From an uncultured Pelagibacteraceae bacterium (GTDB taxonomy: Bacteria; Pseudomonadota; Alphaproteobacteria; Pelagibacterales; Pelagibacteraceae): a stretch of DNA of 64,000 nucleotides. A program made the position numbers and the translations under genes. Where the stretch lies: NCBI GenBank assembly GCA_902591415.1, contig CACJAU010000003.1, positions 11,537 to 75,536 of the forward strand. The letters run 5' to 3'. The notes under the pieces are model-generated. The model did no database searches and was not told the origin of the DNA. It saw nothing but the letters and a program-made list of their open reading frames with translations. Positions 1,120 through 19,207 of the stretch are shown one piece after another; position 1 is the stretch's first letter, and each line of letters starts with the position of its first letter.

Positions 1120-2964
1120 TTAAACACCTTTTCTTTGTTTTTTCTTACCTTCGAGATGTTCTTTAAGAGATTTTTTATTTTCTTCTGTTGTAGGAATACC
1201 AAGAGTAGGGCTTTCCCAGTAAGCTGACCCTTCTAACCATTGATAACCATCTGTATGAATTGAAATTACGTATGTTTTTTTTGATTTTTTTGCTCTTTTA
1301 AATGCCGCTTCTAATTCCGCAATTGAATTTACATGTTCACCGTCTGCTCCCATACTCTTAGCATGGCCTGCGAAATCTACAGGTATCAAATTAGGAGCGT
1401 TTGAACTCTTAAGTAAACAATTAAATTCTTTACCACCTTTATATAATTGTAATCTATTAATTACAGCGTGACCTCCATTATCACAAACTATAAGTATTAA
1501 CTTATTATTTGTTATTACAGAACTATATATGTCAGAATTATAAAGAAGATACGACCCATCTCCCACAAATGATACTACTTCTTTCTCTGGATTTGCCATC
1601 TTAATACCAAGTGCCCCGGAAATTTCATAACTCATACAACTAAAACCCCATTCTGACTCATGAGTATTAAGTTCTCTAGGTTTCCAGACTTGTATAACTT
1701 CACCCACTAATCCTCCAGCTGCAGTAACTGCAATATCAGAGGGATCCGAATTTCTATAGCATGCTCCAATAACTTGAGCGTAACTAGGAAGTTTTTGATT
1801 AGTCGGTCCACTTTCTTTTTCAACATAAGCTTCCCAATTTTTAAGTTCTATTCTTGATTTCTTATACCAGCTATCATCTGCTTTCCAATTTCCTAATACT
1901 TGTGATAGTTCAATCAACGATACTTTAGCATCTCCAACTACAGCTTGCCCCATGTGTTTATTTGCATCGAATCGCGCGGCATTTATAGAAACTAATTTAA
2001 AATTAGGATTTTCAAAATTAGCCCAGGATCCAGTTGTAAAATCTGCAAGTTTAGTTCCAATAGCAATCGCAGTATCAGTTTCTTTACTTAAGTTGTTTGC
2101 AGCTCGTCCACCTAAACCACCAATAGTTCCTAAATAATGAGTATGATCTTTTTTTATAGATGAATAACCCATTACGGTTTGCGTTACAGGAATATTATGT
2201 TTTTTTGCAAAATCACTTAATTCATCTGTTGCATCTGAGTAAAAAACTCCACCCCCAGCAATAATAATTGGTTTTTTAGATTTTTTAATAAGTTCAGCTG
2301 CCTCTTTGATTTGAAAATCGTCTGGTCTAGGTCTTCGTATCGTATGAACTCTTTCTTTAAAGAATTCTTCTGGATAATCATAAACTTCACCTTGGACATC
2401 TTGACTTAAAGAAATACATGCTGGACCACAATCTGCTGGATCTAACATAATTTGAATTGCTTGTTGTAAACTTGAAATAATTTGTTCAGGTCTAGTAATT
2501 CTATCAAAATATCTCACAACAGGTTTAAACCCATCATTCTGAGTTATTCCTGGGTTATTAAAGTGTTCGACTTGTTGCAATACTGGATCTGGCATTCTAT
2601 TTGCAAATGTATCTCCAGGCAAAAAAAGTATTGGAAGTCTGTTACTCATTGCTACAGCAGCTGCTGTAATCATATTTGTTGATCCTGGTCCGACTGAAGA
2701 AGTTGCAACAAAAATTTGTTTTCGTCTTTTAGCTCTTGAGTAAGCAATTCCTGTTAGAGCCATATTCTGCTCGTGATGTCCTCGCCAAGTAGGGAGCTCT
2801 TTTTGGTTTTCCTGCAGTGCCTGACCTAAACAAGCAACATTACCATGACCGAAAATTCCAAACACACCTGGAAATAAAGGTGTTTTTTTTCCGTCTATAA
2901 GAGTTTTTTGAGCTATAAGGAATTTAACTAAAGCGTGAGCACAAGTAAGTTGAATGTTTTTCAT
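1120..2964 (-). CDS. iolD: 3D-(3,5/4)-trihydroxycyclohexane-1,2-dione acylhydrolase (ThDP-dependent)
   Basis: GIFGHGNV, SSVGPGSTN, LPGDTFA, PDPVLQQ, FSCMSYE and GDGSY...N ThDP motif typical of IolD. Confidence 0.9.
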   Translation of the reverse strand: MKNIQLTCAHALVKFLIAQKTLIDGKKTPLFPGVFGIFGHGNVACLGQALQENQKELPTWRGHHEQNMALTGIAYSRAKRRKQIFVATSSVGPGSTNMITAAAVAMSNRLPILFLPGDTFANRMPDPVLQQVEHFNNPGITQNDGFKPVVRYFDRITRPEQIISSLQQAIQIMLDPADCGPACISLSQDVQGEVYDYPEEFFKERVHTIRRPRPDDFQIKEAAELIKKSKKPIIIAGGGVFYSDATDELSDFAKKHNIPVTQTVMGYSSIKKDHTHYLGTIGGLGGRAANNLSKETDTAIAIGTKLADFTTGSWANFENPNFKLVSINAARFDANKHMGQAVVGDAKVSLIELSQVLGNWKADDSWYKKSRIELKNWEAYVEKESGPTNQKLPSYAQVIGACYRNSDPSDIAVTAAGGLVGEVIQVWKPRELNTHESEWGFSCMSYEISGALGIKMANPEKEVVSFVGDGSYLLYNSDIYSSVITNNKLILIVCDNGGHAVINRLQLYKGGKEFNCLLKSSNAPNLIPVDFAGHAKSMGADGEHVNSIAELEAAFKRAKKSKKTYVISIHTDGYQWLEGSAYWESPTLGIPTTEENKKSLKEHLEGKKKQRKGV

Positions 2965-3013
2965 AAATTCAATATAAACTATTTAATTAATATTCTTTAT
3001 TCAACAATAATTT

Positions 3014-4459
3014 ATGTACGATAAATACGGACAGTTCATTGATGGTAAGTGGCAAAAATCTGCCAGCGGTGATACTTACGAAGTCATTAATCCCGCTACT
3101 GAAGAAGTAATAGGAAAGGCCTCAAAAGCAAATAGTTCAGACGTGCAAAAAGCTCTTAAATCAGCTGAAAAAGGATTACAAATTTGGAAAAATACTTCCC
3201 CTTGGGAGAGATCTAAAATTATAAGAAAGATATCAGATTTAATAAGAAAAAGAGTTGATATTCTATCAAAATGGTTAACGCTTGAGGTAGGAAAACCAAT
3301 AACGGAAGGGCCTGGAGAGATTGGTGGTGCAGCCGATATCTTTGAATGGAATTCTGAGGAAACTAAAAGAATTTTTGGAGAAATTAATCAAAGTCGATTT
3401 CCAAATACAAAAATTCACGTTATGTATCAACCAGTTGGAGTTGTGGCTGCGTTAGTCCCATGGAATTTTCCAGTTATTCTTGCTTCAAGAAAAATTTCAA
3501 CTGCTTTAGCAGCTGGTTGTTCAGTTATTGTTAAACCAGATGTGATAACGCCAGGAAGTGTTATGGAAATCGTTGATATTTGTAGAGAGGCAGGTGTGCC
3601 TCCAGGAGTCGTGAATTTATTATCTGGAGATCCAGCTGGAATTTCCGAAGAATTAATTAAGTCAGATATAGTAAAAAAAATTTCTATAACAGGATCAACA
3701 AGAGTTGGTAAATTGATTCTTAAGCAAGCTGCAGATAAAGTTCAAAGAGTAACAATGGAGCTAAGTGGTCACTCACCATTTATAGTTTTTGATGACGTTG
3801 ATTTAAATAAAGTTACTGATATGGCAATAACTTCAAAATTTAGAAATAATGGTCAGGTATGCATTTCACCAAATAGATTCTATATACACGAAAAGAAAAA
3901 AGAAGAATTTGCAAATTTAATGGTCGAAAAAACAAAAAAACTAAAAATTGGGAACGGTATGGATAAAGATACATTACTTGGTCCTTTATGTACAAAACAA
4001 CGATTAGAAGGTGTTGAAAAATTAGTAGAAACTACAAAAAAAGAAGGAGGCAAAGTTTTACTAGGAGGAAAAAGAGCTGCAAATTTTAATAAAGGTTATT
4101 TTTATGAACCAACAATATTTGATGATATCAAGGACAATTTTACAGTTATGAAAGAGGAACCATTTGGTCCAATTGTTCCTATTTTAACTTTTAAAGATTT
4201 TGATGAAGTAATGGACAGAGCAAATAATAATGATCTGGGGTTATGCAGTTATGTTTACACAACAGATTTAAAAAAAGCTAATAAAGCATCTGAGATACTA
4301 GAGTCTGGTTGCGTGGCAGTAAATACTCCTGTTGTTGCGGTAGCAGAAGCACCATTTGGTGGCATTAAACAAACAGGTTACGGCAGAGAGGGAGGTTCAA
4401 TGGCAATTAAAGATTATTTGAATATAAAATACACTCATTTCGGAATCTCGTATGAATGA
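3014..4459 (+). CDS. NAD-dependent aldehyde dehydrogenase, SSADH/GabD-like family
   Basis: PWNFP, ITGST, MELSGHSP, catalytic Cys in NNGQVCIS, EEPFGP, PFGGIKQTGYGREG. Confidence 0.9.
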   Translation: MYDKYGQFIDGKWQKSASGDTYEVINPATEEVIGKASKANSSDVQKALKSAEKGLQIWKNTSPWERSKIIRKISDLIRKRVDILSKWLTLEVGKPITEGPGEIGGAADIFEWNSEETKRIFGEINQSRFPNTKIHVMYQPVGVVAALVPWNFPVILASRKISTALAAGCSVIVKPDVITPGSVMEIVDICREAGVPPGVVNLLSGDPAGISEELIKSDIVKKISITGSTRVGKLILKQAADKVQRVTMELSGHSPFIVFDDVDLNKVTDMAITSKFRNNGQVCISPNRFYIHEKKKEEFANLMVEKTKKLKIGNGMDKDTLLGPLCTKQRLEGVEKLVETTKKEGGKVLLGGKRAANFNKGYFYEPTIFDDIKDNFTVMKEEPFGPIVPILTFKDFDEVMDRANNNDLGLCSYVYTTDLKKANKASEILESGCVAVNTPVVAVAEAPFGGIKQTGYGREGGSMAIKDYLNIKYTHFGISYE

Positions 4460-5247
4460 AAAAAAATAAACTTAAAGAACTTTTTAAAGCTGGCAAACCA
4501 ATTATTAATAGCTGGTTAGCAGTTCCAAGCTCATTTTCGGCTGAGGTAATGGCTAATCAAGGATGGGATTCTTTAACAATTGATATGCAACATGGTCTCA
4601 TTGATTACCCTAATGCAGCAGGTATGCTTCAAGCTATTTCAACTACAGACACGGTGCCAATGGCTCGAGTTAACTGGAATGAGCCAGGGCAAATAATGAA
4701 AATTTTAGATGCAGGATGTTATGGAATAATTTGTCCAATGGTAAGCAACAGAGCAGAAGCAGAAAAGTTTATTCAAGCATGCCAATATCCTCCTAATGGT
4801 TATAGAAGTTTTGGTCCGATTAGAGCTTCAATTTATGGTGGTAGTGATTATTGGAAACACGCTGACACAGAGATACTAAAATTGGCAATGATAGAAACAA
4901 AAGAGGCTTTAGAAAAATTAGAGGAAATCATAGATACTCCAAATTTAGATGGTGTTTATATAGGCCCGGCTGATTTAAGTTTAGCAGTAGGGGAAGAACC
5001 AGGTTTTGATAAACCCGATAACACCAAAGCTTACAATGAAATCTTAAGAATACTTGAAGCAGCCAAAAAAAGAAATTTACTAGCTGGACTTCATAATGGA
5101 ACAGCTGAGTATGCGCAAAAAATGATAGAGAAAGGCTTCAATTTAGTTACAGTTGGCTCTGATAGCAGATATATAGCATCAGGTTCAAAAAAAGATTTAG
5201 AAAAATTAAAGAAAATAAAGAAAGAAAATATTTCTAAAAGTTATTAA
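4456..5247 (+). CDS. HpcH/HpaI class II pyruvate aldolase family protein
   Basis: IDMQHG, ARV, LDAG...ICPMV, YPPNGYRS, AMIET, YIGPADLS motifs. Confidence 0.9.
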   Translation: MKKNKLKELFKAGKPIINSWLAVPSSFSAEVMANQGWDSLTIDMQHGLIDYPNAAGMLQAISTTDTVPMARVNWNEPGQIMKILDAGCYGIICPMVSNRAEAEKFIQACQYPPNGYRSFGPIRASIYGGSDYWKHADTEILKLAMIETKEALEKLEEIIDTPNLDGVYIGPADLSLAVGEEPGFDKPDNTKAYNEILRILEAAKKRNLLAGLHNGTAEYAQKMIEKGFNLVTVGSDSRYIASGSKKDLEKLKKIKKENISKSY

Positions 5248-5248
5248 A

Positions 5249-5512
5249 ATGTTTTTTTATGTTTATATGCTCAAATCCAAGGGCATAAAACCAGTTACTT
5301 ACGTAGGTTACACAAATAATCTAAAAAAAAGAATCAATCTTCATAATTCCGGCAAAGGTGCTAAATTTACTAGAGGTAGAAAATGGAAGCTTATATACAA
5401 AGAGAAATATAAATCAAAAAAAGAGGCAATTTCTAGAGAATATTATATAAAGAACAATAGACATTTAAGAAATAAAATCAAAAATGAAAATTTCAATATT
5501 GCTTCCATATAA
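5249..5512 (+). CDS. GIY-YIG nuclease family protein (YhbQ/UPF0213-like)
   Basis: YVYML...YVGYTNNL..R...HN.GKGAKFT, A..RE..IK. Confidence 0.85.
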   Translation: MFFYVYMLKSKGIKPVTYVGYTNNLKKRINLHNSGKGAKFTRGRKWKLIYKEKYKSKKEAISREYYIKNNRHLRNKIKNENFNIASI

Positions 5513-7619
5513 AGAAAATTTTTCACCTGATTACCCTGGTGCAGTGTCCTTGTTTGTTTATGAAACATCAAAAATAAGTAAATATAAAAAATCTATAACA
5601 GTTTTTGGAAATACAAATTATAAAAAAAAATTTAAATTAAATTATGTAAATATTTATTTAAGTAAAAATTTATTCACTAGTCAAACAAGAAACTATGTAA
5701 ATAAATTCATCGATTTAGAAAAAAAAGTTAATTCAACGATAGTAGAAGTACATAATAGACCTAGTTATATTCATATACTAAACTCAAAGGTTAAAAATAA
5801 AATCTTTACTCTTTATTTTCATAATGATCCACTATCTATGGATGGATCAAAAACAATTGAACAAAGAAAAAAATTACTCAAGACTTGTTATAAAATTATT
5901 TTTAATAGTTCGTGGTCAAAAAAAAGATTTTTAGATGGTTTAGAAAATAAATTTGTAAATAGTAATAAACTTTTAATTTTTTACCAGTCAGCAAATAAAG
6001 GAAATATTAATTTAATAAATCAAAAAAAAAAATGGATTACCTTTGTTGGAAAATTAAATAAAGCAAAAGGTTACGATATATTTGCTAAATCAATCATCAA
6101 AGTTTTAGACAAAAATTCAGATTGGAAAGCAATTGTTATAGGTGATGAAAAAAGAGAAAAAATTAATTTAGTACATAAAAGAGCCTCAATACTTGGATTT
6201 AAAAAACACCCCGAAGTCATAAATATTTTTAAAAAAACAAGTATTACTGTAGCATGTTCTCGTTGGGAAGAACCATTTGGACGAACGAGTTTAGAGGCAT
6301 CTGCTAATGGTTGCGCTGTTATAATAACTAATAAAGGCGGTTTACCTGAAACAGTAACTGATGCAAAAATTATATCTAATTTAAACGTAAAAAATTTAAC
6401 TAAATGTTTAAATAAATTAATTAAAGATAAAAATTTAAGAAAAAAATTACAAACTTTATCAATAAAAAACTTTTATCTCACACATAAATTTGTATCTCAA
6501 AATATAGATTCTTATAGAACAGAAAAATTTTATTATAAGAAAAAAATATTTTTAAAGGCAAAAAATAAAAGCTTAAGAATTTTGCATGTAACAAATTTTA
6601 ATGAAAGACTAGATGGTAGACTTTTTTTTAATACTGGAAGAAGACTAAATAACGGATTTATTAGATTAGGTCATAGTGTTTTAGGATTTAGTGATAGAGA
6701 CATTCAAAAATATTACAAATCTTTCAAAGATATAAAAGGTTCAAATACTCTTAACGAAAAGTTACGAAAAACTTGCTATAATTATAAACCTGATTTGATT
6801 GTTACAGGACATGCTGATCTAATTTCAAAAGAACAAATTGATGAATTAAAAGATGATAATCCTAATACAAAATTTGCTCAGTGGTTTTTAGATCCTCTAA
6901 ATAAAAAAGGACCTGATTACGAGAGGAATAAATCTAGAATTCTTGATAAGATAGATTCTATGGATGGAACATTTGTTACAACCTGTCCCTCAGCACTAAA
7001 TTTTTTGCCAAAAAATAATAAGAATTTTTATATTCCTAATCCATCAGATGAATCTTTTGAAACTCTTAATAATTTTATGAAACCTTGTAACGTTGATGTT
7101 TTTTTTGCATTAAGTCATGGAGTACATCGTGGAAAACTTAAAATGGGTAAAACAGACGATAGAGTAAATTTTTTAAACAATCTTCAAAGAATTACGCCTG
7201 ATATAAAGTTTGATATTTATGGAACAAATAAGGTTCAACCGATTTGGGCAGATCATTACTTTAAAACTATATCTAATGCAAAAATGGGGCTTAACTTAAG
7301 CCGAGGAGAAACAATAAAATATTATAGCAGTGATCGTATAACTCAAATCGTAGGTAATGGTTTGGTGTGTTTAATAGACGAAAAAACAAAATATACAGAT
7401 TTTTTTGAAAAAAATGAGATGGTCTTTTACAAAAATGAAAAGGACTTATCTGAGAAAATTCTCAAAATTGCTAGAGATGAAAAACTTAGAAGAATGATTG
7501 GAAAAAAAGGTAAAATAAAATATATGAAATATTTTAATTCAAATTTAGTTGCCAGATTTATAATTAATAAGACATTAGACTTGCCTGATAAAAACAAATA
7601 TTTATGGTCAAAAGATTAA
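5484..7619 (+). CDS. Two-domain glycosyltransferase (GT4-like N-terminal half fused to a second GT-B/CgeB-like half)
   Basis: FVGKL..AKG and WEEPFGRTSLEA in the N-half; KMGLNLSR..YSSDRI..G in the C-half; 711 aa. Confidence 0.8.
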   Translation: MKISILLPYKENFSPDYPGAVSLFVYETSKISKYKKSITVFGNTNYKKKFKLNYVNIYLSKNLFTSQTRNYVNKFIDLEKKVNSTIVEVHNRPSYIHILNSKVKNKIFTLYFHNDPLSMDGSKTIEQRKKLLKTCYKIIFNSSWSKKRFLDGLENKFVNSNKLLIFYQSANKGNINLINQKKKWITFVGKLNKAKGYDIFAKSIIKVLDKNSDWKAIVIGDEKREKINLVHKRASILGFKKHPEVINIFKKTSITVACSRWEEPFGRTSLEASANGCAVIITNKGGLPETVTDAKIISNLNVKNLTKCLNKLIKDKNLRKKLQTLSIKNFYLTHKFVSQNIDSYRTEKFYYKKKIFLKAKNKSLRILHVTNFNERLDGRLFFNTGRRLNNGFIRLGHSVLGFSDRDIQKYYKSFKDIKGSNTLNEKLRKTCYNYKPDLIVTGHADLISKEQIDELKDDNPNTKFAQWFLDPLNKKGPDYERNKSRILDKIDSMDGTFVTTCPSALNFLPKNNKNFYIPNPSDESFETLNNFMKPCNVDVFFALSHGVHRGKLKMGKTDDRVNFLNNLQRITPDIKFDIYGTNKVQPIWADHYFKTISNAKMGLNLSRGETIKYYSSDRITQIVGNGLVCLIDEKTKYTDFFEKNEMVFYKNEKDLSEKILKIARDEKLRRMIGKKGKIKYMKYFNSNLVARFIINKTLDLPDKNKYLWSKD

Positions 7620-7655: not shown

Positions 7656-8531
7656 GTGAACAATTATTTAATATTTCGAACCGATAGAATAGGGGACTTT
7701 TTAGTTTCTGCAATTCTTATAAAATCTATTAAAATAAATGATCCGCTGTCCCGTATTACTTTGATAGCCTCTAACAAAAACTTTTCTTACATTAAAAAAT
7801 TCCAATCTGTAGATGAAGTAATAAAGCTAGATAACAATTTTTTAAGTAAAGTCAAACTTATTTTAAAATTGAGAAAAGGATATTTTAAAAATGTAATAAT
7901 TCACGATGATAAAAAAAGATCTAAATTTATTTCTCAATTTTTAAAATACAAGACAAAAATAATTATAGAAAATCAAAATAAGTTTTCACATATAGAGGTT
8001 ATTAAAAATATTCTCAAAAGAATTAATTTTACTTTTCATAATGACTCATTAAATATCTTAAAAGACAAGATTACATCAAATCCAAATCAGATTATTCAAA
8101 TTCATTTTGATGAAAAGTGGATTTACAAAGATTATATAAAAAGTTTTATTAATATTGAACCAACTAGTGATAAACTTATTAAATTCTTGTTAGACCTACA
8201 AAATAAAACAAAAAAAAAATTGATAGTTACTTCAGGCCATAAAATTCCTGATATACTAAGAAAAATTAGTTCACAAATTAACAAAGCAAATATAAAGATT
8301 TATGACAACTTAGATTTTTCAGAATTAGAGGGTATTACATCAAAGTCTGAAATTTTGATTTCTTGTCATGGTGCAATATCGCATGTAGCTGCAGCCTTCA
8401 ATATTAAGCAGATAGATATAATAGATAAATCATATAATTACAATCGATGGACAGAACATTTCAGAAATTACAATTATCTTTACAGGGAAAAATTCGATAT
8501 TTTAGCAAATAAGATATTAGAAAAATTATGA
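7656..8531 (+). CDS. GT9 (LPS heptosyltransferase-like) glycosyltransferase
   Basis: N-terminal RTDRIGD; C-terminal ISCHGAISHVAAA resembling the GT9 DSG..H.AAA motif; GTG start. Confidence 0.75.
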   Translation: MNNYLIFRTDRIGDFLVSAILIKSIKINDPLSRITLIASNKNFSYIKKFQSVDEVIKLDNNFLSKVKLILKLRKGYFKNVIIHDDKKRSKFISQFLKYKTKIIIENQNKFSHIEVIKNILKRINFTFHNDSLNILKDKITSNPNQIIQIHFDEKWIYKDYIKSFINIEPTSDKLIKFLLDLQNKTKKKLIVTSGHKIPDILRKISSQINKANIKIYDNLDFSELEGITSKSEILISCHGAISHVAAAFNIKQIDIIDKSYNYNRWTEHFRNYNYLYREKFDILANKILEKL

Positions 8532-9091
8532 AATTTTTAAATAAGTTTAAAAATAGCAAAAATATACGTTTCGATTCTTTTGAAGAAACTTTCAAATATT
8601 GCCTTAAAAGGAATCTTAAAACTATTGTAGAGACAGGCACAGCCAGAGGTAAAACAAAATTTTTTTTCATTAAAAGGTTTAATTGGAAAGATGGTATGAG
8701 TACACCTATGTTTGCTGAATACGCCTCTTCATACGGTGGTATCCTGCATACTTGCGATATTTCTGCGAAAAACATAGCAAATGCTAGAAAATTTACAAAA
8801 AAACTATCTAAGTTTATTAAATTTTACATTCAAGACAGTTTAATTTTTTTAGAACAATTTAAAGAACCAATAGACCTTCTTTATTTAGACTCCTTAGATG
8901 GACATAATCCTATAGAGGCATCAAATCATCAATTAAAAGAAGCCAAAATTGCAATTAAAAAATTACATAATAAGTCTTTGATTTTATTAGACGATAAAGG
9001 GTCTAAGACAAACTTATCTTTAAGTTTTTTTTTAGATAATAATTTTAAAATTATTTACGAAACAAACTATCAAGTACTTTTATCAAAATAA
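8528..9091 (+). CDS. Class I SAM-dependent methyltransferase
   Basis: IVETGT, CDIS, QDS, DLLYLDS, ILLDD motifs. Confidence 0.7.
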   Translation: MKFLNKFKNSKNIRFDSFEETFKYCLKRNLKTIVETGTARGKTKFFFIKRFNWKDGMSTPMFAEYASSYGGILHTCDISAKNIANARKFTKKLSKFIKFYIQDSLIFLEQFKEPIDLLYLDSLDGHNPIEASNHQLKEAKIAIKKLHNKSLILLDDKGSKTNLSLSFFLDNNFKIIYETNYQVLLSK

Positions 9092-9092
9092 T

Positions 9093-9794
9093 TTAAAAAA
9101 AAGCACCTTTTTTAGCAAAAACCAAATCCGCATTTACCCAATTTATTAATTTATAATTATTTTTAATTAATAATTTATATAAATTTGTTTCTATCACTTT
9201 TTCCAATGATAAATTGTAAGTTTCTAAATTTTTAATTTTTGTATCGGTAATTTCTGTTACTACAAGGTCAATATCATACTTGTTAAAATTAAAATTACTT
9301 AAAGCATCAAACTCATAATTTTCTATATCTATTGATAATAAATCAATTTTCGAATTTTTATATTTTGAGTTATTAATTATAGTGTTTAATGATTTTCCTT
9401 TTATCTTAATTATTTCTTTATATTTATTTTTTCTACTTTCAGCTAAATCTTTGCTTAAGGTATTAATATTTGATCTATCATGATAAAAATAAAGATCTTT
9501 TTCTTCATTATCATGTGAAGTTATTAAAGAATGAATATTAGTATCTCTTTTTCTTAACTTATTAAATTGCATGATTGACTTTTTATCCAAATCAATATTT
9601 ATTCCACTCCAACCTTTTTTATATAAAAGGTAAGTATTATTATATTTAATAGGATGATTGCACCCTGCATCAATATAAACGCCCACTTTTTTTTTTGAAA
9701 AGATTCTTTCTATAATCAAATCTACATTGCTAATTGAATAAGACTTTTTTGTATATTTTTCGTAATACAGCTTTTTAAAAAAATTGAAAACCAT
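9093..9794 (-). CDS. FkbM family methyltransferase
   Basis: YIDAGCNHP...NNT, GWSGINID, IDLLSIDIE..E. Confidence 0.85.
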   Translation of the reverse strand: MVFNFFKKLYYEKYTKKSYSISNVDLIIERIFSKKKVGVYIDAGCNHPIKYNNTYLLYKKGWSGINIDLDKKSIMQFNKLRKRDTNIHSLITSHDNEEKDLYFYHDRSNINTLSKDLAESRKNKYKEIIKIKGKSLNTIINNSKYKNSKIDLLSIDIENYEFDALSNFNFNKYDIDLVVTEITDTKIKNLETYNLSLEKVIETNLYKLLIKNNYKLINWVNADLVFAKKGAFF

Positions 9795-10747
9795 TATATC
9801 TTAATCTTATTAAGTGCATTATTGTTAAAAAGATTTGCTTCTCGTATATAACGTCTTACCATTTGTGTTGTTTTATGACCAGTCATTGCCATAATACTTC
9901 TTTCATCTGCGCCGAACTCTGCCGCTACTGTGGCAAAACCTGATCTTAAACTATGACCTGAAAAATTTTGATTTTCTATTCCTGCTAATTTTAGATAATC
10001 TTTGATTATTAAAACTACTGATTGATCAGTTAACCTGTGGCCAGTTAATATTGAGCCTTTGGCAAATCTTCTAAAAATTGGGCCAGTTTTTATTTTAGAT
10101 ATATTTATCCAATTCTTTAAACTTGTAACTGGACAAAATTTTTCATTTGTGAAATAGGGTAGTCCTTTTACCAAACCCTCTCCAAATTGATCTGTTTTGG
10201 ACCTTCTTAGAGTTATTTTTACACCTTCTTCAACAAAATCTAGATCTTCATAATCAATAGAAATTAATTCTGTTCGTCTAAATCCACCACCAAAACCAAT
10301 AAGTATTAAGGTTCTATTCCTCAATTTTTTAATTTTTTCTATTTTTTGTTCGTCTATTACGTTAATTATTTGTTTTAAGTGATTGATTAATATTGGTTTT
10401 TTACCTGTTTGAATACTTCCTTTTTTTCTTTTTATACCCATTAAGTTTTCGATAATAACCGGATGTTTTGTATCTAAGTAATGACCTTTTAACTTATGGA
10501 CCACTCCAATAGATACTAATCTTCGTCTTAAAGTGCTTATTTTTGAGCTTGCAGAAAGGTGAGTCATATACAAAGATACAACCTTTGGTTCTGTGGGCAT
10601 TGATTTAAATCCATGTTTTGCACAAAATATTGCAAAATCTTTAAAATCAGATTTATAAGCTCTAAGCGTATTACTAGCTTTAGATAACTTGAGGTTGTTT
10701 AATGTATCCTCATGAAGCTTTTTTAGGTCTGTAACCAATTCATTCAT
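9794..10747 (-). CDS. Cre-like tyrosine site-specific recombinase
   Basis: N-terminal SAM-like core-binding domain (NTLRAYKSDF); catalytic R (GFRRTEL), K (SKTDQ), H-x-x-R (SGHSLRSG), H (TGHK), Y (VRRYIR). Confidence 0.93.
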   Translation of the reverse strand: MNELVTDLKKLHEDTLNNLKLSKASNTLRAYKSDFKDFAIFCAKHGFKSMPTEPKVVSLYMTHLSASSKISTLRRRLVSIGVVHKLKGHYLDTKHPVIIENLMGIKRKKGSIQTGKKPILINHLKQIINVIDEQKIEKIKKLRNRTLILIGFGGGFRRTELISIDYEDLDFVEEGVKITLRRSKTDQFGEGLVKGLPYFTNEKFCPVTSLKNWINISKIKTGPIFRRFAKGSILTGHRLTDQSVVLIIKDYLKLAGIENQNFSGHSLRSGFATVAAEFGADERSIMAMTGHKTTQMVRRYIREANLFNNNALNKIKI

Positions 10748-10784
10748 ATTACTATCGATAACAATTAATTATCATTAGTAATAT
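10746..10784. other. Putative recombinase binding/crossover site (lox/dif-like): ATATTACTATCGATAA-caattaa-TTATCATTAGTAATAT
   Basis: 16-bp inverted arms matching at 14/16 positions around an asymmetric 7-bp spacer; overlaps the recombinase start codon. Confidence 0.7.
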
Positions 10785-10826
10785 ATTAAGTGATTTTAGA
10801 TGTCAATACGTATAATTTTAAAACTG

Positions 10827-10991
10827 ATGATTAAATTTATTCTTCCTATAGTAGTATTTATAGCTGCAGTATATGGAATTTCATACTTCTGGACTAACTC
10901 AAGCTCAAAAGGCAAAAAAATGATAGCTTTAGGCTTAATAATAGCCCTTATAATAGGCATATCTCTAACAATTTACCTAATTTTTGACTAA
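10827..10991 (+). CDS. Small two-TM hypothetical membrane protein
   Basis: Two hydrophobic stretches; stop overlaps the next ATG (TAATG); upstream in-frame ATG at 10800 also possible. Confidence 0.65.
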   Translation: MIKFILPIVVFIAAVYGISYFWTNSSSKGKKMIALGLIIALIIGISLTIYLIFD

Positions 10992-11266
10992 TGAAGCTAG
11001 CTGGTACTAAATTTCAGCTGAAAGTATGGGCTTATTTGAGGAAAATACCTCGTGGAAGCGTTAAAACCTACTCTCAGGTAGCAAAAGCCATTGGAAAACC
11101 GCTTGCTGTGCGTGCTGTGGCCAATGCTATAGGAAAAAACCCTTATGCGCCCAAAATTCCTTGCCATAGAGTTATAAGATCTGATGGATCACTCGGAGGC
11201 TATTCAGGCAAAGGAGGCGTAAAAACAAAGAGATTTTTACTAAAAAAAGAGGGTATAAGGCTCTAG
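10991..11266 (+). CDS. ogt: Minimal methylated-DNA--protein-cysteine methyltransferase (MGMT/Ogt C-terminal domain)
   Basis: FQLKVW, IPRG.V.TY, RAVANA, active-site IPCHRV, LGGYSG. Confidence 0.85.
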   Translation: MKLAGTKFQLKVWAYLRKIPRGSVKTYSQVAKAIGKPLAVRAVANAIGKNPYAPKIPCHRVIRSDGSLGGYSGKGGVKTKRFLLKKEGIRL

Positions 11267-16146: not shown

Positions 16147-16903
16147 AACTTAAACCATCAAAGGCTGGAATGATGTTTTTTGGTAATTTTTTTTTAAGGA
16201 CAAAATAATCTAAATCTACATGTAAATTAGTTAATATTGTTTTTTTGGGATTTGCAAATTTTACAAAATCAATAGCGTCATCATAATTAAAATGAGAAGG
16301 ATGCTTATTAATTCTTAAACAATCAATAATTAAAAAATCTAAATTCATTAATTTTTTCGTTACCTTTTTACTAATTTCGTTACAATCGCTTATATAAGCT
16401 ATTTTATCAAATAAATAACCATTAGCTTTAATAAGTCCATGATTTACCTCAAATGGATCTATAATTATACGTGAATTGTTTTTTTTAATTTCAAATTTTT
16501 TTTTTATAATATTAGCTTTCATAATTGGTTTGTATCCATGTCTTTGTTTAAAACAATAACTAAAGGTTTTTTTTAATTCTTTTATTGTTTTAATATTTCC
16601 ATAAATTGGAATTTTTTTTTTATTTTTCCAAAAAAAAGGTCGCATTTCAAAAATACCAGTAGTTTGATCTGCATGTTCATGTGTATAAATAATAGCATCT
16701 AGAGTTTTAATCTTATTTTTTAAAAACTGGTTTTTAATATCAGGAGATGTGTCTATCAAAATAGATAAATCACCTTTTTGAATATGTGCGCAACATCTTG
16801 TACGTATGTTTTTTTTATCTTTTTTAAGTTTAGCAGAGTAATTGGTTATCCAAGGTGCGCCTAGAGAGCTTCCACATCCCAATATTGTAAATTTTTTTTT
16901 CAA
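16136..16903 (-). CDS. MBL-fold metallo-hydrolase (PhnP-like)
   Basis: ILGCGSS.G.P, IDTSPD, THEHADQ, AYISD. Confidence 0.88.
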   Translation of the reverse strand: MKKKFTILGCGSSLGAPWITNYSAKLKKDKKNIRTRCCAHIQKGDLSILIDTSPDIKNQFLKNKIKTLDAIIYTHEHADQTTGIFEMRPFFWKNKKKIPIYGNIKTIKELKKTFSYCFKQRHGYKPIMKANIIKKKFEIKKNNSRIIIDPFEVNHGLIKANGYLFDKIAYISDCNEISKKVTKKLMNLDFLIIDCLRINKHPSHFNYDDAIDFVKFANPKKTILTNLHVDLDYFVLKKKLPKNIIPAFDGLSFNF

Positions 16904-17676
16904 TTTAATTTTCCAAATAATTTAAAGAAATTAGAAGTTGTAATTTTAGAAAATGTTTCAAATGTGGTATTTTTTAAATTAGATAAAAATTTAACTGTAT
17001 GTATAATATAACTTGGTTCATTAGATTTTCCTCTTAATGGAACTGGGGCTAAATAAGGTGAGTCAGTTTCTACTAAAATTTTTTCATTAGGTATATCTTT
17101 AAAAGTTTTTGCTAAATCAATAGATTTTTTAAAAGTAACAACTCCACTTGCTGATATATATGCACCTAAATCTAACAACTTAAAAGCAAAATCTCTTGTA
17201 CCTGTAAAACAATGTATTAAAATTTTAAAATCCTTTTCAGCTTTTTTTTTTCTAAGAATTTCTAAAGTTTCGTTCTCAGCATTCCTAGTATGAACAATTA
17301 AAGGTTTCTTTGTAATTTGAGCAGCGGTAATGTGCTCTTCAAAACATTTCATTTGATCATTTTTTTCTGAATGATTATAATAAAAATCTAAACCGGTTTC
17401 ACCGATACCAATGATTTTCTGACTCAAATTAATTTTGTTAATTATAGTTTCGGAATTAATTGATGTATGATTTTTTGCCTCATGAGGATGAATTCCATAT
17501 GTGCCATAAACACAATTAAAATCAGAAATTATTTTAAGAATTTTATCAAAAGTTTTATCCTCTGTGGAAATTGTTAATAAATATTTCACCCCATCATTAT
17601 TAGCTCTAGTTATAGTATCTTTAAGTGATAAAGACATTGGTTCGTAATTTAGGTGACAGTGTGAATCAATTATCAT
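16900..17676 (-). CDS. tatD: TatD family DNase
   Basis: DSHCHL, GIHPH, IGETGLD, HCF, ETDSPYL; ATG at 17676 preferred over TTG at 17682. Confidence 0.93.
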   Translation of the reverse strand: MIIDSHCHLNYEPMSLSLKDTITRANNDGVKYLLTISTEDKTFDKILKIISDFNCVYGTYGIHPHEAKNHTSINSETIINKINLSQKIIGIGETGLDFYYNHSEKNDQMKCFEEHITAAQITKKPLIVHTRNAENETLEILRKKKAEKDFKILIHCFTGTRDFAFKLLDLGAYISASGVVTFKKSIDLAKTFKDIPNEKILVETDSPYLAPVPLRGKSNEPSYIIHTVKFLSNLKNTTFETFSKITTSNFFKLFGKLN

Positions 17677-19207
17677 CTTCAATTTTGTTAAATAATATTT
17701 CTAAATTATTCAATTCCTTATCATGATTTAAAATATTTAAATCTTTAATATTTTCAATATTTAAGTCTTTTATTGGAATATTCATAGATTTTAATACTTT
17801 ATTAGTTGCATCAGGTATTATTGGATTTAGTAAAATGCTTATATTTTTAATTTGATGTGAAACTGTGAACAAAATTGCATTCATTCGATTTAAGTTACCT
17901 TTTTTTTCTTTCCATGGTTCTGAGTCGTTAAAATATTTATTAGCATCAAACGAAAAACCAACTACAGTTTTAATGTATTCATTTAAATTTTGATTATTCA
18001 TTAAATTTATTAAATGTGGTAATTTTTTTAATAAATTATCTAAAAATTTTTTATCAGTCACATTTAAATTTGTGCTAGCTGGTATTTTATTACCACAATT
18101 TTTTTTTATAAAAGAGAATACTCTCTGGCATAAATTTCCGTAATTATTGGCTAAATCATTATTTATACAATTTTTTAAATTTTCCATAGATATTGATCCA
18201 TCATTACCAAGAGATACTTCTTTCACTAAATAGTATCTAAGTTGGTCAATTCCGTATTTATCTATAATTTCAATTGGATCCAGAATATTTCCAAGCGATT
18301 TTGACATTTTTTTTTCATCTGACAAAATCCAACCATGACCAAAAACTCTTTTTGGCAAAGGTAACTTTGCTGCGAGTAAAAAAGCAGGCCAGAAAACAGC
18401 ATGAAATCTTAAAATATCTTTACCTATTATATGAATGTCTGCTGGCCAAAAACTTTTATATTTTTTGTCGTTCACATCAGGAAAATTTAATGCACTTATA
18501 TAATTAGTAAGTGCATCTAACCACACATATATAATATGTTTATTATTTTTTGGCACTGGTATTCCCCAAGTAAATGATGTTCTGCTTACTGATAAGTCTT
18601 TTAATCCTTTTTCAACAAATTTTATAACCTCATTTCTTCTAGAAGGTGGTAAAATAAAATTCTCATTGTCATTATAAAATTTTAATAATTTTTTTCCCCA
18701 TGAAGATAATTTGAAAAAATAAGACTCCTCTTCTACCCATTCAACGCTTGAACCAGATAGTTTTGAAATTTTTTTTCCATTTATTTCTTCTACTTCATCT
18801 TCATCATAAAATGCTTCGTCTGAAACAGAATACCAACCACTATATTTATCAAGATATATATCTTTAGATTCTACAAGTCTGTTCCATATTTCTTTTACTG
18901 ATTTGTAATGTCTTTCTTCAGTTGTTCGAATGAAATCATCGTTAGTTAAATTAAGTTTTTTGTTTAGTGATCTAAATGTTTCTGATATTTCATCACAAAA
19001 AATTTTCGGATCTTTATTGTTCTTTTTTGCTTCTTTTTGAATTTTTTGACCATGTTCATCAGTTCCTGTTAAAAATAAAACTTGATATTTTTCAAGTCTT
19101 TTAAATCGTGCAAAGATATCTGCAACAATACTTGAATAGGCATGTCCCATATGAGGTTTTCCTGATGGATAATATATTGGAGTTGTAATATAAAAATTTT
19201 TATTCAT
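17666..19207 (-). CDS. metG: Methionine--tRNA ligase
   Basis: HMGH, GTDEHG, YVWLDAL, GKDILRFH, KMSKS. Confidence 0.97.
   Translation of the reverse strand: MNKNFYITTPIYYPSGKPHMGHAYSSIVADIFARFKRLEKYQVLFLTGTDEHGQKIQKEAKKNNKDPKIFCDEISETFRSLNKKLNLTNDDFIRTTEERHYKSVKEIWNRLVESKDIYLDKYSGWYSVSDEAFYDEDEVEEINGKKISKLSGSSVEWVEEESYFFKLSSWGKKLLKFYNDNENFILPPSRRNEVIKFVEKGLKDLSVSRTSFTWGIPVPKNNKHIIYVWLDALTNYISALNFPDVNDKKYKSFWPADIHIIGKDILRFHAVFWPAFLLAAKLPLPKRVFGHGWILSDEKKMSKSLGNILDPIEIIDKYGIDQLRYYLVKEVSLGNDGSISMENLKNCINNDLANNYGNLCQRVFSFIKKNCGNKIPASTNLNVTDKKFLDNLLKKLPHLINLMNNQNLNEYIKTVVGFSFDANKYFNDSEPWKEKKGNLNRMNAILFTVSHQIKNISILLNPIIPDATNKVLKSMNIPIKDLNIENIKDLNILNHDKELNNLEILFNKIEDDN

Follow-up and report, generated by a model that had tools for sequence, protein, structure and literature searches.

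What does a tyrosine recombinase gene that carries its own inverted repeat at its start do in the chromosome of a streamlined marine bacterium? The question is raised by a stretch of 64,000 nucleotides from an uncultured Pelagibacteraceae bacterium (the whole stretch is called the window below). The original prediction, made from this DNA, was that the gene and the repeat are a domesticated one-gene, one-site replacement for XerCD/dif. The conservation of the site, its position at the terminus and searches of family genomes that found no XerC or XerD all support this proposal, and we put the probability at roughly 80% that gene and site together form a domesticated one-gene, one-site module for the resolution of chromosome dimers in Pelagibacteraceae, in place of XerCD/dif.

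The recombinase reading frame is intact, and its 317-residue product matches the phage-integrase family of Pfam (PF00589) at 76 bits, against a cut-off of 27 (E 3e-21). The residues R157, K184, H265, R268, H291 and Y300 are unchanged in all 36 aligned orthologs. The protein is therefore a complete tyrosine recombinase with the motif R-K-HxxR-H-Y, as had been read from the DNA, and its catalytic R-K-H-R-H/W-Y set together with the phage-integrase domain places it in that family. A predicted model of the protein (pLDDT 85) has a Cre-like fold over both domains, with Cre as the best structural match (TM 0.77, Z 24) and lower scores for XerH (TM 0.57 to 0.60, Z 19.5) and XerD (Z 14.7). A family profile likewise puts Cre at the top (E 1.4e-13, positions 24–291), with the XerH profile (E 1.5e-8) below both Cre and XerD. 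By sequence the protein is not XerC, XerD, XerS or XerH: it scores 72 bits with the XerD model TIGR02225 (cut-off 329.6), 61.9 bits with the XerC model TIGR02224 (cut-off 335) and 37.8 bits with the XerS model (cut-off 267), where XerD of the sister family itself scores 314–325 bits, slightly below the TIGR02225 cut-off. The view that the enzyme is Cre-like rather than XerC/XerD-like is thus borne out by fold and profile, but it does not extend to sequence identity, by which the closest proteins are plasmid recombinases (up to 44% identity, with Xer proteins at ~25%) and a TnpS-like protein, not Cre. Cre-type recombinases are marked in PMC10250229 by a 13-8-13 site together with Trp at the position of Cre residue 315; here the protein has His291 instead, and the spacer measures 7 bp at each of the 73 loci. 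JGI labels the close homologs 'site-specific recombinase XerD' (the protein search there returned close homologs only).

Table 1. Positions of the recombinase gene, the predicted site and the surrounding features in the window.
Feature	Position	Strand	Remark
Tyrosine recombinase gene, 317 aa, Cre-like fold; 'long' allele with RRFAKGS segment near residues 226–237	9794..10747	-	
Predicted recombination site, 16-7-16 here; conserved portion ~14-7-14 at 10748–10782	10746..10784	.	
Gene-proximal arm; overlaps the ATG here by its last two bases	10746..10761	.	
Asymmetric 7-bp spacer, TTAATTG on the gene strand	10762..10768	-	
Promoter-proximal arm; possible -10 hexamer TATTAC at 10783..10778, 17 bp from the -35	10769..10784	.	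Inferred from sequence
TTGACA, likely -35 of the recombinase promoter	10801..10806	-	From sequence and TTGAC position in orthologs
Glycosyltransferase, context marker	5484..7619	+	Homolog 0.6–1.3 kb from dif-like site in three sister-family genomes
tatD-metG, context marker	16900..19207	-	Other flank of dif-like site in sister family
Three KOPS-like octamers (1204, 3304, 4986), towards the site	1204..4993	+	
Next KOPS-like octamer, also towards the site	13816	-	
Two distant KOPS-like octamers, away from the site	59757, 63146		

The inverted repeat at the start of the gene is as originally described, with 16-bp arms complementary at 14 of 16 positions around an asymmetric 7-bp spacer (Table 1). 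A single repeat of such quality in an AT-rich genome is not above chance: the 908-kb assembly holds 54 scanning intervals of equal quality, many of them overlapping, and three Markov simulations gave 11–19. Because the repeat alone is not unusual, the case rests on comparison among genomes. The core GATAA-N7-TTATC lies upstream of the gene in all 73 orthologs whose 5′ end is intact (four XerC loci were excluded from this set, as were three that are truncated or broken), with its inner 5+5 bases invariant, and in 79 of 79 loci of a second, partly overlapping set, in which one further locus was too short; the repeat is therefore conserved upstream of orthologs, as the prediction required. The spacer reads TTAATGG in 45 of the 73 loci and TTAATTG in 22, is asymmetric, and is at least 97% conserved at five of its seven positions. 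With a matrix built from the ortholog sites, the window's own included, the window site scores 38.1 bits and the runner-up anywhere in the assembly 3.7 bits, and it is this difference, together with the invariant inner bases, that lifts the repeat above chance. The exact core occurs seven times in the 908 kb of host DNA; the site as a whole is single-copy in the assembly, the matrix scan giving no partner. As the outermost 1–2 bp of the arms and the overlap with the ATG vary among orthologs, the conserved element is about 14-7-14. The reported overlap of repeat and start codon holds in this genome but is not a conserved feature; in orthologs of the long allele the ATG usually lies 17–18 nt beyond the spacer. 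A TTGAC sequence is found 37–39 bases ahead of the spacer in all 73 loci, a spacing that would place the likely -10 within the outer arm and that fits the earlier suggestion of an autoregulatory operator. A sigma-70 consensus scan did not list the proposed recombinase promoter.

The surroundings of the gene also agree with the first description. Transposase, phage and conjugation Pfam families were not found among the window proteins scanned (9, then 55), and the nearest tRNA, for Pro, is 3.1 kb away. The patchy occurrence, tRNA-linked att site and mobile cargo of a prophage or island integrase are not seen for this recombinase. The divergent ORF upstream is not constant across genomes and no neighbour gene is conserved, which is only suggestive of a recombinase that works without accessory proteins. 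The glycosyl- and methyltransferases immediately downstream (7656–9794) and the small ORFs upstream (10800–11266) vary between genomes and make up a small variable terminus region, and a conserved 91-aa ORF at 10991–11266, which has only the DNA-binding domain of an O6-methylguanine methyltransferase, precedes the module in most genomes. At 5249 a GIY-YIG gene has a counterpart at the matching place in the genome G081. The window's own assembly, which is 80% complete, contains one other tyrosine recombinase, a 416-aa phage integrase in prophage-like DNA (L002, G000:C15:6967-10572) with small phage-like ORFs nearby; this region is probably a prophage or island.

Orthologs of the gene are present in 213 of 230 Pelagibacteraceae genomes that are at least 85% complete, with no match in the other 17, all of them drafts; the 20 genomes examined from the sister family of the order have none. 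The gene is thus near-universal within Pelagibacteraceae but does not extend to the whole order Pelagibacterales. All 45 single-contig genomes of the family carry the gene, with an intact frame in 43 and a broken one in G107 and G113, and each of the 80 top-scoring matches in the genome collection bears the name Pelagibacteraceae, Pelagibacter or Pelagibacterales. Identity among the ortholog proteins ranges from 50 to 100%, with catalytic residues and site core invariant throughout.

Whether these genomes also encode XerC and XerD could be answered with the same models. In 146 family genomes the top score of the XerD model was 89.5 bits, and that match is the recombinase ortholog itself. The same search gives two matches in each of five sister-family genomes, at 314–325 and 244–254 bits; since it detects both enzymes there, it would have picked them up in Pelagibacteraceae as well. 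A search for XerC in four Pelagibacteraceae genomes agrees in finding none, and most family genomes hold a single PF00589 match (the PF00589, XerD and 230-genome tallies each include one entry from an unpublished genome, G084, on which none of the conclusions rests). A dif-consensus pattern gave control-level matches only in the window's own genome and in five complete family genomes. XerC and XerD are two paralogs unlinked to an 11-6-11 dif, whereas here the site adjoins the gene and has a 7-bp spacer. Pelagibacter ubique is among the species listed without dif/Xer by Carnoy and Roten (PMC2731167). In a 2026 preprint (10.64898/2026.10.07.757358), automatic annotation assigns XerC and XerD to 15 Pelagibacter Ia.1 genomes; as JGI also labels the recombinase XerD, we read the naming in this Arctic preprint as probable mislabelling. 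FtsK with its gamma domain is present, and FtsK-gamma was found in five of five genomes.

Cumulative GC-skew and gene-orientation maxima lie at most 3 kb from the site in all five stretches analysed (400 kb each from G195, G071 and G063, 240 kb from G081, and the window's own 92-kb contig, all chosen around the gene and from kindred genomes), and the skew switch to be located is therefore at the site. On the window's own contig the maxima fall at window positions 8700 and 9091. The gene also lies opposite parB: in the 38 of 45 single-contig genomes covered, the median distance between the two is 0.479 of the chromosome, and it is at least 0.45 in 36, the others being G063 (0.449) and G081 (0.10). 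We took parB as a second origin marker because the distance to dnaA, 0.40–0.49 in 37 of 38 genomes, never reaches 0.5. In G081:C1, a single contig, the gene is 0.10 from parB yet the local skew switch is at the site, possibly owing to misassembly or a large rearrangement.

The raw GC-skew signal is, however, largely gene-strand bias. Skew at four-fold sites is nearly equal in genes of either direction (-0.110 and -0.103), and orientation-corrected skew at four-fold sites has no switch at the recombinase site. Octamer polarity is a signal partly independent of this bias. The octamer GGGNAGGG points towards the site 18 times and away from it once, and RGNAGGGS 130 times and 22 times, and in several genomes the direction flips a few kb or less from the site; RGNAGGGS was picked after a k-mer scan, and these genomes are related to one another. 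Within genes directed away from the site, octamers of RGNAGGGS type still run 26 towards it and 6 away, compared with 7 and 4 for the reversed control. The skew and strand switch in five of five stretches, most of whose skew is gene-strand bias, the octamer polarity and the distance to parB together place the site at the replichore junction, and the family combines one recombinase, a unique palindrome linked to it and missing XerCD.

The sister family provides the strongest comparative argument. In three of its five genomes (G037, G039 and G040) there is a dif-like sequence with a common TATATA centre, at most 1 kb from the local skew maximum and flanked by homologs of the window's glycosyltransferase and tatD-metG. 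A dif-like match of the shared form was not listed for the other two, and matches to the dif-like pattern alone are no commoner than those to its control. The window's recombinase and site occupy the interval that corresponds to this dif-like site, and it is this shared marker-gene interval that most strongly argues that the module does the job of dif. With a Cre-fold gene and a conserved site at the dif position of the sister family, and with no XerC or XerD found, the module likely separates fused sister chromosomes.

The module occurs in two alleles. Proteins of the long allele have 317–318 residues and arms like ATTACTAAYGATAA, and those of the short allele, with ~304–310 residues, lack a stretch of ~12 residues and have arms TTCCGATAA. 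All 26 TCC-type sites are paired with proteins without the segment. At the other 47 sites the segment was recognized by pattern in 45; one of the remaining genes is frameshifted and the other, 317 aa by length, is taken as a pattern miss. Changes in the arms come in both arms at once, as in L014. In a profile alignment, the missing stretch lines up with 'rvrkngvaapsat' of Cre, where R243 and K244 touch the outer arm of loxP. Both alleles are found at the same locus inside the genera g1, g8 and g11, which, on a quick tree, suggests that the module moves between strains as a gene-plus-site cassette.

In the mechanism that we propose, one recombinase monomer would bind each arm of the site. Once homologous recombination had produced a chromosome dimer, FtsK would move along the polar octamers and pair the sister sites at the septum, where a homotetramer would swap strands over the 7-bp spacer to give two monomer chromosomes. 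FtsK might activate catalysis or only align the sites. Bound recombinase would also cover the -10/start region and so repress its own gene. The module may derive from a multimer-resolution system of plasmid type.

This possible origin is pointed to by the nearest relatives. Plasmid 'site-specific integrases' (Alicyclobacillus pAACI01, Protochlamydia pPNK, Skermanella pTT6-3) are 37–44% identical to the recombinase. In this plasmid Cre/TnpS group, GATAA...TTATC repeats lie upstream in three of five plasmid loci, and the same site core is upstream of 7 of 11 homologs from other alphaproteobacterial genomes, where a class-wide sample matched 11 of 298 genomes outside Pelagibacteraceae. As plasmids and other alphaproteobacteria share enzyme and core, the enzyme-plus-site pair is a widespread module of plasmid type. 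In contrast to the SAR11 gene, the plasmid group is patchy and its spacers are varied (7 or 8 bp in plasmids), and XerC and XerD are also present in three of five tested genomes with plasmid-type alphaproteobacterial homologs. What appears to be new is the fixation of such a module at the terminus of XerCD-less chromosomes. TnpS of Tn4651, here the 323-aa integrase of pWW0 as assigned from gene arrangement, is nearer to the recombinase in sequence than Cre (one pairwise comparison gave E 5e-37, with 27% of 313 aligned residues identical), and TnpS/TnpT resolves fused replicons (PMC7157771). TnpS has a divergent helper gene, whereas none is conserved beside the SAR11 recombinase. The TnpS/TnpT arrangement, with the site between the two divergent genes in a Tn3-family transposon, is not seen in the window, which has no transposase family, and a search for GATAA-N6-8-TTATC between the two pWW0 genes found none.

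A homolog of 352 aa with 34% identity (L611, G470:C3:165900-167000) belongs to the genus g181, which consists of small AT-rich alphaproteobacterial genomes, and is present in 24 of its 31 mostly incomplete genomes; XerD was not found in six of six genomes of this second lineage that were tested. Its site, TACGATAA-CTGTAA-TTATCGTA, has a 6-bp spacer, lies between TTGACT and ATG and is identical in 12 of 12 genomes. Octamer polarity flips at this site in G470, G612 and G613, and skew maxima fall 5–26 kb from it on short contigs. That another genus in which XerD was not found repeats the layout speaks for the dimer-resolution reading. A quick tree groups the two XerD-less lineages as sisters with support 89 on a long branch and was not relied on; the domestications in these lineages may be one or two. 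In G468 (2.0 Mb, 100% complete) the only XerD-model match is the homolog at G468:C1:283555-284712 (L614), with no clear site or skew switch.

Copies of the site resembling the host's are also found in viral contigs, in which the recombinase is beside the site in 0 of 93 loci and in none of the 41 longer ones. A terminase is encoded in 32 of these 41, with HTVC010P/HTVC106P-type pelagiphages as nearest named relatives. The scrambled-spacer control gave 55 matches against the 93 and partly overlaps the real pattern, so we set the raw viral count aside and relied instead on how the sites are linked to terL and on the bias in their spacers. When the spacer was left open, 17 of 120 viral matches began with TTAAT. 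Many viral contigs with TCCGATAA-N7-TTATCGG have other recurring spacers, TTAAACG in 9 and TTAAATG in 7 of the 120 (L354-L473). Among 11 named phages, the exact core occurs at most 1 kb upstream of terL in four, one-mismatch variants occur in four, and two have none. In phage Greip the core has a spacer of 6 bp, and one of its arms is the same as in the window; HTVC010P has only a one-mismatch variant with an 8-bp spacer near terL; the core was not found in HTVC028P (412 bp examined) or in the OM43 phage Venkman. Upstream of terL in HTVC024P (L486) and HTVC100P (L487) there are two adjacent site-like repeats, one like the short allele and one like the long. The spacers of most phage isolates differ from that of the host, which argues for a use of the site inside the phage genome, or for decoy binding, rather than for integration. 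Phages of HTVC010P type, which lack an integrase, are described as strictly lytic in PMC8477408. Among the metagenome contigs listed as aligning to the locus, no joint falls at the site, and the loose ends listed are host-like.

These copies bear on the possibility that the module is mainly for gene flow, with the site as a hotspot or attachment site for phages and islands and dimer resolution as a by-product. We consider this improbable. Flanking genes do differ among genomes on either side, and the association of host-like sites with HTVC010P/HTVC106P-type terminases (32 of 41) would fit, but the site is single-copy without a partner, the variable envelope genes here lie past the 3′ end of the recombinase, 1 kb from the site, the recombinase accompanies none of the 93 viral copies, and named pelagiphages mostly have different spacers. 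Insertion at the site would moreover separate the gene from its promoter, and the terminus position and the mutual exclusion with XerCD would be left unexplained. Quite improbable, too, is a palindrome that is only an autoregulatory operator, with the recombinase working elsewhere or as a DNA-binding protein. The invariance of the six catalytic residues speaks against it, as do the asymmetry of the spacer and the strong conservation of five of its seven positions (≥97%), which resemble a crossover region, the lack of a second site in the assembly and the flip of octamer polarity at the site; in its favour, TTGAC spacing is fixed in 73 of 73 loci, an arm overlaps the likely -10, and repressors of recombinase fold exist, with SroF, YopR and MrpR among the fold matches.

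That the family has ordinary XerC and XerD after all, the gene being a divergent XerD on a divergent dif, is what the JGI label and the XerC and XerD named in the Arctic preprint would imply. This is very unlikely given 72 bits against 329.6 for XerD and 62 against 335 for XerC, the single PF00589 match in most genomes, Cre as the first match by fold and profile, and an identity of up to 44% to plasmid proteins against ~25% to Xer. We give hardly any weight to a functionless relic of an integrated plasmid or transposon: the nearest relatives are on plasmids and the frame is broken in two single-contig genomes, yet it is intact in 43 of 45, and catalytic residues and core stay invariant at 50–100% identity. 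A module for dimer resolution is thus the reading that we prefer. A wider scenario seems possible but doubtful to us, in which streamlined marine alphaproteobacteria swapped XerCD/dif for a plasmid-type module in two lineages, with exchangeable, enzyme-matched alleles, and integrase-less phages of HTVC010P/HTVC106P type exploit the host enzyme through copies of the site, either on their own multimers or for integration at the terminus where the spacer matches.

Known systems offer several parallels to the proposed dimer-resolution module. XerS/difSL of streptococci and lactococci is likewise one module at the terminus, with one recombinase and its site directly upstream, and its authors raise the possibility that the site, lying between promoter and ORF, lets the gene regulate itself (PMC1914069 and PMC5357621). 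The XerS enzyme is unrelated, however, with 356 aa compared with 317 here, and the SAR11 site differs in its 7-bp spacer and GATAA/TTATC core; dependence on FtsK is demonstrated for XerS, while for the SAR11 module there is the presence of FtsK-gamma. XerH/difH of Campylobacter and Helicobacter also pairs a single recombinase with a palindrome, which lies between genes close to the peak of the skew and is in many cases linked to the recombinase gene (PMC2731167), but the centre of difH is 6 bp and XerH ranks below Cre as a match. Cre/loxP of P1, the best whole-length match by fold and profile, has symmetric arms and an asymmetric spacer near its gene, loxP sits opposite the P1 origin (PMC2680272 and bioRxiv 10.1101/2024.04.05.588136), and Cre-loxP is able to replace XerCD-dif in E. 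coli (PMC2680272). In contrast to Cre, the SAR11 enzyme, with ~19–20% identity, has His291 for Trp315, and a spacer of 7 rather than 8 bp, and its gene is part of the chromosomal core in a family of free-living bacteria. With XerCD/dif it shares the chromosomal interval, the presence of FtsK-gamma, the polarity of KOPS-like octamers and, most likely, the task, but differs in having one enzyme, a site-linked gene, symmetric arms and a 7-bp spacer. In its presumed working the module resembles XerS/difSL and the engineered loxP-at-dif, yet it belongs to neither family. In open-access literature on SAR11/Pelagibacter recombinases and dimer resolution we found no description of the module, and one supplementary file of PMC10250229 has no Pelagibacter entry.

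If it works as proposed, the module would be a natural counterpart of the engineered replacement of dif by loxP and a further single-recombinase solution alongside XerS, XerH and XerA. The two alleles, each a naturally matched enzyme and site with a spacer of 7 bp, are candidate tools beyond the 8-bp searches of PMC10250229, and its site copies raise the question of why 'strictly lytic' phages carry the core. The site would provide a precise terminus marker for SAR11 genomes, in which the labels 'XerC' and 'XerD' are suggested to be wrong. Carnoy and Roten (PMC2731167) ask what bacteria without dif/Xer use instead, and for a very abundant marine lineage the module may be a specific, testable answer.
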